Virus record (IMG/VR): IMGVR_UViG_3300033076_000880
Location: 1-47,758 of that record
DNA length: 47,758 nucleotides
Direction: 5' to 3' (one strand)
Source of the DNA: a virus
Lineage: Duplodnaviria; Caudoviricetes
Part shown: positions 2,818 to 47,758 of the stretch, piece by piece
Position numbering within the stretch: position 1 is the first letter of the stretch
Layout: each line of letters starts with the position of its first letter
Notes under the pieces: model-generated
Databases searched by the model: none
Told to the model about the DNA's origin: nothing
The model's input: only the letters and a program-made list of their open reading frames with translations
Translations under genes and position numbers: made by a program

Positions 2818-3105
2818 ATGAAGCATATCAACTATCACTTCACTATCTCGACCTACGTCCCCGAGAACGCAGACATCAAACAGGTGTTTCGCGCTCTGAA
2901 CTTCGTAGCCGACAAAGCTGCCAAAGGGTTTGATCCTGCGAACACTCCACGCAATCGGCAGTCGTGCGCGAGCATCATCAAATGCCACAATGAGACTGCT
3001 CGCCGTCGTAAGAATCGACTTGCTTTAGCTAAACAAACACCGCACCTCTCGCGCCCCCAAGATGAAATCGAAAGCACCCGTGGCACCGACGCCACTTCCG
3101 TTTGA
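2818..3105 (+). CDS. Hypothetical protein
   Basis: ORF with ACCACC-ATG context like other genes; overlaps the next ORF by 44 nt. Confidence 0.6.
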   Translation: MKHINYHFTISTYVPENADIKQVFRALNFVADKAAKGFDPANTPRNRQSCASIIKCHNETARRRKNRLALAKQTPHLSRPQDEIESTRGTDATSV

Positions 3106-3271
3106 ACGTCGGAGAGCTGAAGGCATTCAATTGATCGAGATGGCCCTACTTATGGGCATCTCCGCGCCCTATTTGTACGACATGGAGCACGGCAATCGCC
3201 GCGTCTCCGACCAGCACCGGGCCAAGTATATGCTCGGTCTCACCACCCTCAAATCCCCAGCGAAAGTCTGA
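3062..3271 (+). CDS. XRE/Cro-like helix-turn-helix protein
   Basis: RR-x2-GI-x-L-x-EMA-x3-GIS-x2-YL-x2-ME-x-G-x-R pattern; directly upstream of the primase. Confidence 0.8.
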   Translation: MKSKAPVAPTPLPFERRRAEGIQLIEMALLMGISAPYLYDMEHGNRRVSDQHRAKYMLGLTTLKSPAKV

Positions 3272-36655: not shown

Positions 36656-37620
36656 GAGAAGTTGATTACGGGGCGAGCGACACAGCGACAATTCGCCGCG
36701 TCCCCTGGGTGTCCACGGAAGCCGGTAGCTTGGTCGACAATGGGAGGCGATGCCCAAGCGAACGTGCGTCCGTTAAGCGCACGGTGATCGGCGCGGACCC
36801 GCTCATCTTGGCTGGTTTCCCAGACGTATTGAGTCGCGCCGACATCGAGGTAACGCTGGCGGCGAAACTCCGAGACGAGTGCAGCGGTTTCATTTTCAGC
36901 AATCGAACGCGCCCTCCGTTTGGCGATGCCAAAGTCGGCTTCGAGAACTCGGGTGAGTTTGTCGATGCGTCCTCCTTCAGAGAGATTGTCGCGGACTTTG
37001 GCACGGATGGCAGAGATTTGTTCGAGGCTGAAACCCTTGATCGATCGATCGGTCTGCCGGGTCAGGTCTGTCCTCAGTTCCTCGGAAAGACTCGGCGGAG
37101 TCTCCGAAGGGGGTGGAAGTCCTTCCTCGGCGGATACGGTTTCGACTAACTGCTCCTGTAAGTCTTCGGTGATGTTGTCAACAGTATCCGTGAAAGTGAG
37201 TCCCGTAGGAGCGATCTCGATATGCTCCTGCATCGCGTCGAGAGTTGAGACAATCGATCGATGTAGCTCGGCGCTGGTCGCGATGGACGTTGCGATAGCC
37301 CCGCGCAGGACCAGGGGCACGTCGCCGATGGGCAAGGCAAAATTGTCACCTCTGCGCGTCGCACCCATCGCCCGCAGTTCGCGACTGATCGCCGCGTTGA
37401 ACGTACCCATGAACAGTCCTGAGGCATACCAGATGACTCCTGCCAGCAGGGCATCCCACACAGCGGGGTGCTCCTTGTTCTCGTTCACACGGACGTTGTC
37501 GGCCCGCAGGAGGTTGAACAGCGGGTCGTAGATCGACTGCTCGAGATACGCGATCAACTCTTTCGCCACCTCGTCGGTGTAGCGGTCACGGTGCAGGATC
37601 GGCGCAAGCGTCTTTTTCAC
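36652..37620 (-). CDS. Head morphogenesis protein (SPP1 gp7 / Mu gpF family)
   Basis: RA-x2-IA-x2-ET, Y-x-W-x-TS-x-DERVR-x2-H-x2-L-x-G, HPG-x3-NCRC. Confidence 0.94.
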   Translation of the reverse strand: MKKTLAPILHRDRYTDEVAKELIAYLEQSIYDPLFNLLRADNVRVNENKEHPAVWDALLAGVIWYASGLFMGTFNAAISRELRAMGATRRGDNFALPIGDVPLVLRGAIATSIATSAELHRSIVSTLDAMQEHIEIAPTGLTFTDTVDNITEDLQEQLVETVSAEEGLPPPSETPPSLSEELRTDLTRQTDRSIKGFSLEQISAIRAKVRDNLSEGGRIDKLTRVLEADFGIAKRRARSIAENETAALVSEFRRQRYLDVGATQYVWETSQDERVRADHRALNGRTFAWASPPIVDQATGFRGHPGDAANCRCVARPVINFS

Positions 37621-39089
37621 TCGTCCTTCTTCGCCGGTTCTTTGCCCTTCGCAGCTTTCTCTGGCTTACCAGCGGCAACTGGATCCGTCGCCGTGTCCAT
37701 CATCGGCTCGACGTCACGTTCGCCTCGAGAAACTTCCGTCTCGATGTCCAGCAGGTTCTCGCGACGGAGGATCGTGGATGCCTCGATGCCGGTGACCAGA
37801 CGCTGCTGGAAGAGCTCCATGACTCGAGTCTGCTTCTTGCTCTTGACTTCCTCCTCCTGCACTCCGTCGAGGAGTTTGAGGGGCTTCCATTGGATCGTGT
37901 ACTCGGGGACGAACCCGAAAAGTTGCTGGCAGCGCAAGTCGACCACCTCGATGACGACGGGCTCGGCATTAACTCGAACCTGCTCGACCACGGAATTGTA
38001 ATTCTCGATGGAGTCCTGCCCACTACCAAAACCGCTGGCGCTCTGGCCAAACAGCTTATTCATCGGTATCTTCAAGTCGGCCGACAAATTCAGGCGAATC
38101 TCGTTCCACATCTCAGCAAGGCCCGACCAAGTGAGCTGCTTCTGCTGGTAGGTATCTTCCTTGTCCATCACCAGAGCGTTCTGGAAATTCTTCATCCGGT
38201 TGGCTAAATCAACTCGGCGTTGAGTGTTCGCGGTGCCCTCGTCGGTGAGGAGGGCGTCGTTGAATCCCATGATCGAGAAGACGTCGATCTTGGCCTCGTC
38301 CAGAAGCTCGAAGACCAAGTTCTCGAACTTGATGAACGAGTTGATGGCGCGGATACAGCGCTCGATCTCGCTCATGCCCCAGCCCTGCAGGCGCAGGCGG
38401 ATGTAGCTGGGAGCCTCGAGGCCGAGCACCTTGACCACCCGGGAGGTGTGCAGGGGCAGTCCGTAGTAGCTGAAGGGGGTCGGGTTGCCGACGGCGTAGA
38501 TGTTCGTCTGCGACAGGATCAACTCCCACCGATCTGCGGCCAAAAACTCGAGTGGGGAGTCGGGCTGGATCTTTTCGATGTCGAGCGGTTGGCTGAAATT
38601 CTGGTCGGTATTGATGATGAGCCCCGCGCCACCGTAGAGGCGAGACCAGTTGAGGACGTCCATCATCACGCGGATGTCCGAATTGCCCAAGTTGACGGCG
38701 GCATTCGGGTTCACTCGGCGATTGAATTTGTTCAGCTTGCCACTGCGGGCGCGGCGACGAGGGCGTCGAATCGCGTTCTGGAGTTGAGCCAGTTCGTCGT
38801 CGTTCAGCTCATTGCTCTTGATGTCAAAGCCGCCTCGAAAAGCATCATTCACCGGCTGAGTGACGAGCGTCTGCACGAGACCCTGCGTCATGTACGAATA
38901 CGACAGGACGATCCGGTTTAGCGTGAGCGGTACCCCGGCATTGCCCATCGCCAAGGTGTAAGGTTGTGCAATCGTCTGCGTACCGTAGGTGCCAAGCCCG
39001 CCTGTGGTCTGCGCCACGAGGTCGGACAAGCTATTTAGCCGGGTGCCAGCCTTGTCCTCGAGGCCGGTTTTGGGTTCGGTCGCAGTCAT
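37617..39089 (-). CDS. Portal protein (DUF1073 type)
   Basis: RLYGG, H-x-SRV, GWG-x-S, IP-x2-KLFGQS-x2-GF, NY; position between terminase and head genes. Confidence 0.92.
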   Translation of the reverse strand: MTATEPKTGLEDKAGTRLNSLSDLVAQTTGGLGTYGTQTIAQPYTLAMGNAGVPLTLNRIVLSYSYMTQGLVQTLVTQPVNDAFRGGFDIKSNELNDDELAQLQNAIRRPRRRARSGKLNKFNRRVNPNAAVNLGNSDIRVMMDVLNWSRLYGGAGLIINTDQNFSQPLDIEKIQPDSPLEFLAADRWELILSQTNIYAVGNPTPFSYYGLPLHTSRVVKVLGLEAPSYIRLRLQGWGMSEIERCIRAINSFIKFENLVFELLDEAKIDVFSIMGFNDALLTDEGTANTQRRVDLANRMKNFQNALVMDKEDTYQQKQLTWSGLAEMWNEIRLNLSADLKIPMNKLFGQSASGFGSGQDSIENYNSVVEQVRVNAEPVVIEVVDLRCQQLFGFVPEYTIQWKPLKLLDGVQEEEVKSKKQTRVMELFQQRLVTGIEASTILRRENLLDIETEVSRGERDVEPMMDTATDPVAAGKPEKAAKGKEPAKKDE

Positions 39090-39196
39090 CGGTAATTGCG
39101 TATTGCATCACCCACGACATTAGGGCAAGTCCAATCCAGTGCTGCGGGTTCCGATCCTTTTTCTGGAGCAATACCGCATCCAGATAAATCAAAACC

Positions 39197-39457
39197 ATGA
39201 GCCAAGTAACTAGAGCAAAAATGCAGGTCCAAACGGTCATTCCCTATGACCCGGCACTGAACCGAAACTGCGAAGAGGTTAAATTGTTCGCTGTGTGCGG
39301 CAATCAACCCTTCGGCCCCAATGGCGAATCTGAGGATAACTCGTTCGCTCGTTGGACCCCCACAGGCAGTATGCAAATGACCATTACAAATCCAAGTCTG
39401 TTCGGGGTGTTCCAGCCCGGTCAGAAATTCTACGTCGACCTGACTCCCGCAGACTGA
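39197..39457 (+). CDS. Conserved small hypothetical protein, lone + strand gene in the late arm
   Basis: RAK ... F-x2-WTP-x-GS-x2-M-x-I-x-NP ... F-x-PG-x2-FYVD-x-TP pattern; has its own terminator. Confidence 0.85.
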   Translation: MSQVTRAKMQVQTVIPYDPALNRNCEEVKLFAVCGNQPFGPNGESEDNSFARWTPTGSMQMTITNPSLFGVFQPGQKFYVDLTPAD

Positions 39458-39492
39458 CCCCAAAAACCTGTTTTCAAGCTCTCTTAAGAGCC

Positions 39493-39536
39493 GAGCCCCG
39501 GTTGCCCGCAAGGGAGGTCGGGGTCTTTTTATTTTT
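39493..39536 (+). terminator. Intrinsic terminator for 39197-39457
   Basis: GC-rich hairpin with GCAA tetraloop followed by TTTTTATTTTT. Confidence 0.75.
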
Positions 39537-39612
39537 GGAGCTGTTACCAGGGGGCGAGCGACCGAGGAGTCCGTCCTCAGTCTGTTTTGTCCCGCCCGCT
39601 GGTAGCAGTCCC
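39537..39612. ncRNA. Stem-closed structured unit
   Basis: CTGTTACCAG/CTGGTAGCAG, then GGGCG/CGCCC and an inner GACCGAGGA/TCCTCAGTC hairpin; strand ambiguous. Confidence 0.5.
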
Positions 39613-39692
39613 TAACTCGGTTTCCCGATCTGCGCTATTAAGCATGGGACTCGACCGACCACGTTCGTCGGAGCGGAACCCTCTTACCCTAA

Positions 39693-39733
39693 GAAAACAA
39701 AGAACCCACATCCGCTTAAAGATGTGGGTTTTT
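39693..39733. terminator. Bidirectional intrinsic terminator-like hairpin
   Basis: AACCCACATC/GATGTGGGTT 10-bp stem with A-rich left and T-rich right flank. Confidence 0.75.
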
Positions 39734-39820
39734 CCGTCTAGCTGACCCTGCTTCCTCCGCTATCGGGTCACTCTCAGCGGCAGTTGAGTGAGTTACTTCA
39801 TTGGTGGTGAGGGAAAGGTG

Positions 39821-39910
39821 TCACGGCAGCGAGGCGTCCCGAGTTACCTTTGGGACCGGCCCCCGTTACTCTTGCGAGTGGGGATACCGAGAAAAGTATC
39901 GCTGCCGTGA
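39821..39910 (-). ncRNA. Four-way-junction structured RNA unit (90 nt)
   Basis: 12-bp inverted repeat TCACGGCAGCGA/TCGCTGCCGTGA enclosing three hairpins; GCAA and GTAA tetraloops on the - strand. Confidence 0.7.
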
Positions 39911-39917
39911 AAATGAA

Positions 39918-39982
39918 AGACGCCGAGCGGGTTGGATTGCTAGTTAGTTTGCTTTAGTGTAACCGGCAAGTGCTCGGCGTCT
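39918..39982 (-). ncRNA. Stem-closed RNA unit (65 nt)
   Basis: 11-bp inverted repeat AGACGCCGAGC/GCTCGGCGTCT; strand inferred from neighbours. Confidence 0.6.
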
Positions 39983-39985
39983 AAT

Positions 39986-40028
39986 TGGTGCGGGCCAGTG
40001 ACAAGGTCGCTAAACCATACCAGCCCGC
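39986..40028 (-). ncRNA. tRNA-acceptor-like minihelix ending in ACCA (43 nt)
   Basis: GCGGGCUGGU pairs with ACUGGCCCGC (two G-U pairs that form only on the - strand), followed by ACCA. Confidence 0.65.
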
Positions 40029-40091
40029 CGAGTTTCGTCGCAGTCGATCTTGGACTACGCCCGCTAAGGCGCAGTTTCTCCAAGTTTGCAA

Positions 40092-40156
40092 TCCCCACGA
40101 CTACCTCGAAATTGAATTGCTCCTGACACAGCAGGCTCCGCAAACCAGTCGTGGGA
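40092..40156 (-). ncRNA. Stem-closed RNA unit (65 nt)
   Basis: CCCACGACT/AGTCGTGGG 9-bp inverted repeat, inner CCTG/CAGG hairpin. Confidence 0.58.
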
Positions 40157-40159
40157 AAG

Positions 40160-40223
40160 TGATACTTTCGACGTGCTGGCGATGAGCTTAATCCTGCCAA
40201 GAACTCATATCTCGGATGTATCA
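40160..40223 (-). ncRNA. Stem-closed RNA unit (64 nt)
   Basis: TGATAC/GTATCA outer stem, ATGAG/CTCAT inner stem. Confidence 0.45.
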
Positions 40224-40232
40224 GAAGCAAAT

Positions 40233-40532
40233 TGGTGGATGTGGCGGGAGTCGAACCCGCGTGCTTCAAATTTCGCCCGTCACCTCGACATGCTTAAAGG
40301 GTGCCTGAGATCAGGCACCTCCACCATCTAGCTGTTTAGACCGTCGCTAGAACCGGCTTTTCGCTGTATCCAAAGCGGGCAAGAATCTCGTCCGCTTGCT
40401 CCAGACTGGGAGCTTCAGTGAGGCTAATGTTAGTGTTAGCTTTTATGGTTTGGCACGAAGTTTACGAGTATCAGTGCCATCCTCGGCATGCAGTTCGGAG
40501 CTACGTTGGAAGTAGAATCCATGAACACACCC
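40233..40532 (-). ncRNA. ssrA: tmRNA (one-piece, 300 nt), tag ANTNISLTEAPSLEQADEILARFGYSEKPVLATV*
   Basis: Acceptor GGGUGUG/CACAUCC with G3-U wobble and encoded ACCA; T-arm GCGGG-UUCGACU-CCCGC; 5' GGAUUCUAC; GCAUGC/GCAUGU helix; AUAAAA-GCU resume context; tag ORF 40440-40336. Confidence 0.95.
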
Positions 40533-40541
40533 AAAAGTTTC

Positions 40542-40598
40542 GCCACCACCTCAACGTGCTTTCCTGTTTTCTCTTACCCCACTCGCAGAGGTGGTGGC
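40542..40598 (-). ncRNA. Stem-closed RNA unit (57 nt) immediately upstream of the tmRNA
   Basis: 11-bp inverted repeat GCCACCACCTC/GAGGTGGTGGC with purine-rich interior on the - strand. Confidence 0.6.
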
Positions 40599-40670
40599 TT
40601 GTTAAAGAACATCGGTTGAGCCGACGGATGAGAAGAGAACAACTCTTGTGCTGTCGCGCAAGAACTAATT

Positions 40671-42227
40671 TCAAATAATCGACGCCTCACTGAACTTGGA
40701 TGCCTCGACCTCTTTTTTCTCAACCTTGGCGTCGATGATCTTCTTGAACACCGCCACCAGCGGGTCTCGCATTGCCTCGTCCAGCTCCGCATCCAATTCC
40801 TTCTTACGTCGCTCGGCTTCCTCCTTCTTGAATGCCTCGGTCTGCGCAGGCGTCATGCGCCGCCCACCAATGACACTGAGGATCGAAGTGCCCTTGCCGA
40901 GGCAGAGAAACACCCCGTCGGCGAATGCGTCGACTTGGTCATCCTTGGTGCTCTTGCCGTCCTCGCGGAACGCAGCGCACTCCTGCTCGAACGCAGGCAG
41001 CCACGTCGCGTCCTTTGGCAGCCAGACCATGCCGGTCGCTTGGTAAGCCAAGATCTGCTTCACGCGGGTCACCTTGTCCTTCACGCGAATGACGCCCTTC
41101 GTGGGGATGCCTTTCTTGCGGAGGTCTTGGATGAGCGTCAGACCAGCGGCGGCTTCCTCGACACTCATGTAGGCGACGGGCGAAGCAGACTTGTGGTGCT
41201 TCTCGTAGAAAGCCCTGGCGATGCGGAGCAGGTCAGCAGGTGCCCATTTGCCGCGCATCTGGTCGATCAGGTAGGCTTTCTTCTGATACCGACCCCAGCA
41301 CTGGAGAACCGAGTGGTCGTTCGCTTCCTTGGTCTTCATGGCGGTGTCGGCCACGATGATCTTGAACTCGAACTTGGGTGCGTATTCGGCGGTGTAATAC
41401 CTAAAGTCCTCCGTCTTGATGAGGTTGCCGCCGATGACGGTCGGCTCTTGAAGATACTGCGCAGCGAAGGCGAAGGGATTCACCCGTTGCGTGTCCAGCA
41501 GGGACTTCGTGCTGACGGTCTCGGGGATCGCCGACTCGCCGTTCGGGGCGAGGGCGGAGAACTTGATATGGTGAACGTCGTCGGGATACTCGCGCAGCAC
41601 GAAGCCGGACAAGTCCTCCGTATCAAGCCGCTGCATACAAATGATGATCGGAGTCCACTGCGAACTGTTGCGGCGGGACTTGAGGGTATTCTCGAACCAA
41701 AACCGCAGTTTCTCCGACTCCACCCTCGAGAGTGCCTCATCGGGCTTGCTGGGATCGTCCAGCACGATGAACCCGCCAGCGCGACGCTTGAGCCCCGCAC
41801 CAAGGCCGGTCAGCGATCCACCGACGCCGTCGCCGTAGACCTTGCCGCCGTTCTCCGTCGTGAAGTGGTCGGCTTGACGAATCTGGCCCAGCCGGGTCGG
41901 AAACAGCTCGGCATACCACGGCGTCGCCATGACCTGCTGAATGTAGCGCACCGACGTCTTCGCCAGCTCGTTCGAGTAGCTGAGATAGATCATCTGCGCG
42001 TCGGGAAAATACCCCAACATCCAAGAGTTCAGTGCCTCCATGATCTTCGTCTTACCCACGCGAGGCGGGATGTTGACCACGACGAAGCTCTTGTTCAGCT
42101 GGCCCAGCACGGCGCGTTGCAGGGTCTCGCACGACGAACGGTGCAGATCTTTGATGGGTAGCTCCAGCCCCATCAAGGGCACGAAGGCTTTCTCGAAATA
42201 GTCGGCGAATGAAAGGAAGTCGCTCAT
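40671..42227 (-). CDS. terL: Terminase large subunit
   Basis: NIPPRVGKT Walker A, LTG-x-GA, IVLDDP Walker B, MQRL, F-x-AQY-x-QEP, DTA-x-K-x4-ND-x-S, DDQVDA. Confidence 0.96.
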   Translation of the reverse strand: MSDFLSFADYFEKAFVPLMGLELPIKDLHRSSCETLQRAVLGQLNKSFVVVNIPPRVGKTKIMEALNSWMLGYFPDAQMIYLSYSNELAKTSVRYIQQVMATPWYAELFPTRLGQIRQADHFTTENGGKVYGDGVGGSLTGLGAGLKRRAGGFIVLDDPSKPDEALSRVESEKLRFWFENTLKSRRNSSQWTPIIICMQRLDTEDLSGFVLREYPDDVHHIKFSALAPNGESAIPETVSTKSLLDTQRVNPFAFAAQYLQEPTVIGGNLIKTEDFRYYTAEYAPKFEFKIIVADTAMKTKEANDHSVLQCWGRYQKKAYLIDQMRGKWAPADLLRIARAFYEKHHKSASPVAYMSVEEAAAGLTLIQDLRKKGIPTKGVIRVKDKVTRVKQILAYQATGMVWLPKDATWLPAFEQECAAFREDGKSTKDDQVDAFADGVFLCLGKGTSILSVIGGRRMTPAQTEAFKKEEAERRKKELDAELDEAMRDPLVAVFKKIIDAKVEKKEVEASKFSEASII

Positions 42228-47691: not shown

Positions 47692-47758
47692 CGCTGCCAC
47701 GCTGCCACGCTGCCACGCTGCCACGCTGCCACGCTGCCACGCTGCCACGCTGCCACGC
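47692..47758. repeat. Tandem 8-bp repeat (TGCCACGC)n, right part
   Basis: About 8.4 units running to the window end. Confidence 0.98.

Follow-up and report, generated by a model that had tools for sequence, protein, structure and literature searches.

What kind of RNA is specified by a 43-nt hairpin that carries an encoded ACCA end and lies between the terminase and portal genes of a phage? The window, that is, the whole 47,758-nt stretch of DNA analyzed here, is a complete phage genome with direct terminal repeats. Both record ends (1–76 and 47703–47758) carry a tandem array of the 9-nt unit GCTGCCAC-G. The hairpin is contained in the 1.6-kb terminase-portal gap, and both flanking genes are on the minus strand. 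The same gap holds, on the opposite strand, an 86-residue gene (39197–39457, plus strand; PHROG phrog_6978, function unknown) with relatives in six viral contigs at 41–75% identity. Folding of the minus strand places in order a boxA-like motif, a helix-closed unit, a tmRNA gene, five more units and a terminator. The features are:

40671–42227, minus strand: terminase large subunit gene, upstream neighbour of the run
40604–40610, minus strand: boxA-like motif GTTCTTT, exactly 5 nt before the first helix-closed unit
40542–40598, minus strand: first helix-closed unit by folding, 11 bp, purine-rich loop; slot also filled in relatives
40233–40532, minus strand: tmRNA gene ending in ACCA (Rfam RF00023, 96 bits)
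40117–40230, minus strand: helix-closed unit after the tmRNA, 14 bp, z −4.58; its 12-nt motif is also in a 165-nt unit of L260
40050–40064, minus strand: 14/15-nt match to the 5′ end of a tRNA-Gly; it precedes the CCA end by 79 nt, about a tRNA length
40029–40108, minus strand: long-hairpin unit, 80 nt, 4-bp closing helix, z −3.39, with the second UUAGCG loop
39986–40028, minus strand: the 43-nt hairpin with ACCA studied here, by folding, z −2.79
39918–39982, minus strand: helix-closed unit, 11 bp, A/C-rich loop, z −5.99; counterparts in L041 and L009
39821–39910, minus strand: helix-closed multi-branch (four-way) unit, 12 bp, z −4.53
39802–39805, minus strand: third ACCA, away from any helix end
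39693–39730, minus strand: intrinsic-terminator-like hairpin (39703–39730) with a T tail, closing the run
37617–39089, minus strand: portal protein gene, downstream neighbour of the run

The GTTCTTT motif is one that we take to resemble the boxA of rRNA operons. Apart from the tmRNA, Rfam at gathering level returned no family in the whole window, and at E values up to 10 nothing accounted for 39690–40232; a sigma-70 scan found no promoter for the run. We read the run as an optional, modular stable-RNA operon that would be transcribed as such. Other units of the window end in GAAA, AATT, TTCA and ACAC. An encoded CCA is not a rule of the operon, since most units in these runs are without it (none in L041, L260, L010 and L018). 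A 12-bp complementarity between the post-tmRNA unit and the next one is found within 40092–40157 on the minus strand, with a second 7-bp match adjoining, and may represent a switch or a pseudoknot.

The sequence of the 43-mer, with the ACCA encoded at its 3′ end (40028–39986, minus strand), is as described in an earlier note on this DNA, which saw a minihelix RNA here. It is predicted to fold into a 10-bp helix, a 2×5 internal loop, a 4-bp hairpin and a free ACCA, at −20.9 kcal/mol; 3 of 200 shuffles fold equally well. All 10 helix pairs have a probability of at least 0.88 in each of five sequence contexts of up to 916 nt. That two G·U pairs favour the minus strand is borne out by the z value of −2.79 versus −1.54 on the plus strand. 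These G·U pairs are pairs 7 and 8 of the stem, and hence the G3·U70 mark of alanine is absent. The ACCAAT flank proposed to be common to the tmRNA (40236) and the 43-nt unit (39989) is present in both, and TTAGCG begins at 40013 and again at 40067, both within predicted hairpin loops. A third ACCAAT (39805) had been pointed out after the four-way unit. The letters are there, yet the motif gives no support: 16 nt separate it from the end of that unit's 12-bp helix and its neighbours are weakly paired (best partner ≤0.58), so that it is not a stem plus CCA.

As the earlier note held, no D arm, anticodon arm or T loop is recognized: ARAGORN called 0 genes in the window, and RF00005 gave no match at E up to 10 in 39000–40700. 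Compared with a canonical tRNA, the 43-mer has the acceptor helix, the discriminator and the CCA, and the cloverleaf arms are absent. It also departs from the classical minihelix, with 10 bp rather than 12 stacked, a 2×5 internal loop and no T-loop consensus.

By its sequence, the end of the 43-mer is a glycine-type acceptor; the first six helix pairs are as in tRNA-Gly. tRNAs with a GCGGGC/GCCCGC stem were collected by a pattern that ignores the anticodon. In the phylum of G019, an Opitutae bin that carries a related portal gene, 26 matches occur in 19 of 61 genomes; all 26 have glycine anticodons and 7 of the 26 end in ACCA. The phylum of G020 has 18 matches in 14 of 41 genomes, 18/18 being glycine and 0/18 having ACCA. 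Across both phyla, therefore, 44/44 tRNAs with this stem are tRNA-Gly and 7 have an ACCA end. The last 10 nt of tRNA-Gly(CCC) in G083, a complete genome, are identical to those of the 43-mer, and a match to the start of one or another of the 30 tRNAs recovered from G083 (30/45) is found for only 2.4% of the G-started 6-mers in the phage. Relatives also occur in Fimbriimonas, gammaproteobacterial and other bins, so the Opitutae are no more than candidate hosts. Leucine identity was considered and rejected, the acceptor being glycine-type in the sampled genomes of both phyla.

The tRNA-Gly identity pairs G1-C72 and C2-G71 are present in the 43-mer. The discriminator is A73, which tRNA-Gly has in 7/26 cases in the G019 phylum and in 0/18 in the G020 phylum. 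C35 and C36 of the glycine anticodon are absent, as there is no anticodon arm and the inner loop is UUAGCG. Glycine identity in model bacteria is described as residing in U73, the anticodon, G1-C72 and C2-G71 (PMC9976931). Since model bacteria read U73 and the anticodon, efficient glycine charging of the 43-mer is doubtful unless the host has A73. The proposal of an acceptor-stem mimic is supported, and made more specific, by the glycine-type end and the base pairs read by the toxin FaRel2; it draws nothing from the third ACCA.

A candidate source for this acceptor lies just upstream. Scored with a tRNA-Gly 5′ weight matrix, position 40064 ranks first in the window (18.4 bits; the next scores 12.7), and related records have no such match among 523,600 positions. 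A wider comparison with 65 tRNA 5′ ends, a set glycine-rich by construction, agrees: no other stretch of the window matches any of them at 14/15, and elsewhere 5 do so in 524,140 nt. The match was noticed post hoc. Over its interior, the 79-nt stretch is no nearer to tRNA-Gly than shuffles are (82/300), and under a full tRNA-Gly profile the relic scores only E 9.3. The old 5′ strand is now predicted to pair inside the hairpin upstream, its place opposite the 3′ end being taken by a second GCGGGC at 40028. A 79-nt fold that uses the old tRNA 5′ strand is disfavoured: the pairing has a probability of 0.039 when the 79-mer is folded by itself, and of 0.0 in longer contexts. Judged from these letters, 40050–40064 is likely a relic of the parent tRNA gene, and the simplest history would be a tRNA-Gly gene rebuilt via internal duplication.

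The tmRNA gene of the run (40233–40532, minus strand) is short, 300 nt, and was missed by ARAGORN. Its frame from the likely resume codon yields a 34-residue tag ending in VLATV, which is far longer than the cellular tags examined and is without the usual ALAA end. The tmRNA may rescue ribosomes without tagging proteins for degradation. The tmRNA did not point to a host, because the matches are restricted to the T arm and acceptor and the tag is unlike the cellular tags examined. The sole match of the tmRNA 3′ pattern is a permuted tmRNA in an unrelated viral contig (L008, 361–803, minus strand).

How far the run extends beyond this genome can be followed at its head. The boxA-like motif, exactly 5 nt and a G-started helix occur directly after terminase in the window and in L009, L010, L018, L044, L041 and L260. 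The table of motif plus helix has 15 rows, 7 after terminase with the window included and the other 8 elsewhere; L018 and L044 are near-identical. On sequence comparison the head of the run recurs in five related lineages, with putative compensatory changes. The six positions of motif plus first unit are:

window 40542–40610, minus strand
L009, 2922–2998
L010, 3903–3984
L018, 1437–1533
L041, 684–755
L260, 409–484

In the six aligned first helices 60/60 cells pair and the pair type differs at 9/10 positions, a pairing count that leans towards structure since the helices were picked for pairing. The first unit is a helix-closed, purine-rich RNA of 57–85 nt with a G-C start and then a G after it in 6/6, and it has no Rfam match at gathering level. 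This boxA-led unit is probably a better-supported new RNA family than the 43-mer. A search with the boxA-plus-stem pattern gave 7 matches, genuine only in the record of L009. No RNA run is present at the site in the closest relatives by terminase (L002–L004, 85–87%), nor in L046/L259, L261, L017 and L129–L131.

The unit next to the 43-mer also has counterparts. A helix-closed A/C-rich unit with AAGCA in an unpaired loop is found at 39918–39982 (minus strand) of the window, 764–825 of L041 and 3093–3157 of L009, and the L009 counterpart ends in ACCA. The stem of the window unit matches the acceptor of the G083 tRNA-Val(TAC) at positions 2–7; the stems of the counterparts differ. A pattern for this unit gave 63 matches, none convincing by eye. 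L009 has, at 3009–3237 on the plus strand, three consecutive units ending in GCCA, ACCA and GCCA: a degenerate cloverleaf missed by ARAGORN and Rfam, followed by two helix-closed RNAs. A 7-nt loop caps the inner hairpin of the last one, whose acceptor presumably recalls tRNA-Asp, a likeness whose pattern matches are at control level. TRNA-sized units closed by GAGGG/CCCTC, with a T-arm-like last hairpin, occupy the equivalent genomic slot in L011 (7632–7704), L016 (2437–2509) and L018 (1612–1666), and ARAGORN made no call on them. Inspection by eye also found an in-frame insertion near the terminase 3′ end in L259 (3170–4130), L017 (7310–7635) and L059 (after 2538), which resembles an intein, in some cases with an HNH-like domain and in others not.

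Searches for the 43-mer itself returned no homologue. Blastn against 50,697 phage records gave just 3′ ends of tmRNAs and tRNAs plus noise at E=5, and blastn against plasmids and against related loci gave none; the exact pattern had 0 matches in viral contigs. The best of 18 related virus records, mostly fragments, had an E of 0.024, and none was convincing. A one-sequence covariance model found only the 43-mer itself in 41 sources (457,973 bases) and had hits in 0/151 genomes, the latter scan being run without a positive control. In sequencing runs, 39200–40200 is covered by the probable source contig alone, and the pieces of a relative in run X2 stop short of the unit. The literature, with limited coverage of subscription papers, yielded no paper on a natural phage minihelix or on this operon; three contig ids and a 3′ motif are absent from six supplementary files of PMC10690425.

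We favour, at a probability of about 0.45, the reading in which the hairpin is a tRNA-Gly-type acceptor end, likely remodelled from a captured tRNA-Gly gene, and provides a non-decoding RNA of a phage stable-RNA operon with its tRNA-like 3′ end. The RNA would not decode, because it has no anticodon arm. A promoter after terminase, together with the boxA-like motif, would give a single long transcript that starts near 40600 and ends with the terminator near 39700. Host tRNA-processing nucleases would then separate the helix-closed units, and the 43-nt unit would be trimmed to the CCA at 39986. A cut by RNase P at the base of the helix would put the 5′ end at 40028 (43 nt); failing that, it would be at about 40108 (about 125 nt). 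The helix and the CCA could shield the RNA from exonucleases, and the glycine acceptor end would be presented to GlyRS, the CCA enzyme and acceptor-stem toxins.

Where the 5′ end would lie depends on the junction with the upstream unit. Bacterial RNase P is reported to cleave phage RNAs in which a long helix and RCCA occur without a T loop, such as C4 RNA, and to favour U(−1) (PMC10731613). The 43-mer has the 3′ RCCA and the G at +1. An unpaired U(−1) leader is absent, and C(−2)G(−1) are predicted to be paired in the 4-bp helix of the upstream unit; the leaders of the other units are U/A-rich, unlike that of the 43-mer. The unit abuts the 80-nt upstream unit without a spacer. Since there is no spacer and the −1 base is G rather than U, the 43-mer may cap the 3′ end of a longer RNA of about 125 nt, whose body would then possibly be the 80-nt unit.

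Several other readings compete with a 3′ end of this kind. It is improbable that this is one of many hairpins in a hairpin-rich region with an ACCA next to it by accident. A loose filter (stem of at least 9 bp plus NCCA) has 15 occurrences in the window, and a strict one, applied to 619,656 nt from this phage and related ones, has 16 matches, of which 12 fall outside RNA runs; the z value of only −2.79 points the same way. On the other side, a stem plus NCCA arises in 14 of 2000 dinucleotide shuffles of the 498-nt run (only 0.7%), genuine tRNA-Gly genes have the same last 10 nt as the 43-mer, and the likely 5′ relic of a tRNA-Gly is found upstream. From the strict-filter and shuffle counts, the hairpin is unremarkable genome-wide and unlikely by chance in its place; such a hairpin alone is common in phage DNA, and its position within the run is what makes it credible. 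An armless decoding tRNA, with the inner loop as a UAG leucine anticodon in the manner of the 44-nt nematode mitochondrial tRNAs, is hardly believable. The loop does contain U-UAG, yet it is predicted to be of 4 or 6 nt with a C after UAG, and the acceptor is of glycine rather than leucine type in the sampled genomes; we know of no armless tRNA working on bacterial ribosomes. The length is similar to that of armless mitochondrial tRNAs, for which a 7-nt anticodon loop is described as mandatory (PMC9976931).

Two further alternatives share the glycine origin. A tRNA-Gly gene at 40064–39986 may have undergone internal duplication and decay, leaving the hairpin as a functionless by-product. This is unlikely but serious: the 5′ relic is at tRNA distance from the CCA, the D, anticodon and T arms are unrecognizable to Rfam and ARAGORN, and the 43-mer is found in one genome only, no homologue having turned up in the searches. 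Decay, however, does not readily fit a helix that at 10 bp exceeds a tRNA acceptor and uses a new 5′ strand, an old 5′ strand locked in a stable hairpin, an intact CCA and neighbours that are conserved folded units. It is decidedly unlikely that the glycine acceptor end acts as a decoy, soaking up anti-phage enzymes that attack acceptor stems (toxSAS such as FaRel2; GNAT acetyltransferases) and thereby sparing host tRNA-Gly. FaRel2 is reported to read G1-C72, C2-G71, G4-C69, purine5-pyrimidine68 and the 3′ CCA, and to modify bare minihelices (bioRxiv 10.1101/2024.07.05.602228). The 43-mer has the four pairs (G1-C72, C2-G71, G4-C69 and G5-C68) and the CCA, and a boxA-led operon would yield high copy numbers. 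These determinants nevertheless come free with descent from tRNA-Gly and occur by chance at about 5% of the G-started sites of the phage; no toxin is known for the host, and none of the other operons read has the 43-nt unit. In addition, the neighbouring unit has counterparts whose stem sequence varies freely, which suggests that the stems are structural rather than identity signals. About as unlikely is the broader proposal of a natural phage glycine microhelix made in bulk from a boxA-led cassette operon as a decoy against acceptor-stem toxins, the operon being a modular rack of helix-capped small RNAs that this phage group would swap between terminase and portal.

Taken as a tRNA-type 3′ end, the hairpin can be compared with known RNAs. 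T4 RNAC and RNAD have tRNA-like ends and processing. These RNAs (species 1 and 2) are described as small, non-decoding and of unknown role, in a stable-RNA (tRNA) region of the phage (PMC3014915, PMC9697503). The 43-mer likewise sits in a tmRNA-bearing run; here, in contrast, a 48-kb phage that has a tmRNA and no standard tRNA carries the run between its terminase and portal genes. In C4 antisense RNA a long helix is reported to replace the T arm at a consensus RNase P site, and the M3 RNA of phi80 is among the listed RNase P substrates (PMC10731613, PMC11143913). The 43-mer differs from both in having no Rfam match or identified antisense target, and in its suboptimal leader with G at −1. The synthetic tRNA-Gly minihelix used as a FaRel2 substrate is reported with the same four determinant pairs and CCA and without an anticodon, whereas the 43-mer is natural and phage-encoded, with discriminator A, a 10-bp helix, an internal loop and no T loop.

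Plant mitochondrial t-elements and acceptor-stem-like stem-loops are described as tRNA-derived or tRNA-like sequences by which RNA ends are marked for RNase P or RNase Z (PMC1920247). The t-elements were found by a conserved T arm (PMC1920247), which the 43-mer does not have, and it sits in a phage non-coding operon. YrlA Y RNAs are non-coding with a tRNA-like module, and that of M. smegmatis is reported to be cut by RNase P and to gain CCA (PMC4201824). A Y RNA was rejected, as the 43-mer is without a D/T arm mimic or the GNCGAAN0-1G motif; none of the 57 window proteins scanned belongs to the Ro60/TROVE family. Prokaryotic tRNA gene fragments, too, hold partial tRNA sequence, and they are attributed to integration or CRISPR activity (PMC9897764), whereas the 3′ end of the 43-mer has a new, longer partner and lies in an RNA operon. 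The 43-mer thus fails membership of the tRNAs, classical minihelices, Y RNAs and armless tRNAs. By analogy, it would resemble in its working the small stable phage RNAs with tRNA-type ends (T4 RNAC/RNAD, C4 and M3) and the t-elements.

Phages are reported to counter tRNA-attacking defences with whole replacement tRNAs (10.1101/2024.07.05.602228). If the decoy proposal were true, a 43-nt acceptor end without a decoding arm would represent a different strategy, a sink rather than a substitute. Even if the hairpin is a cap or a remnant, the surrounding run has several conserved, uncatalogued RNAs in a small phage, and it bears on an old question, the role of the T4-type stable phage RNAs.
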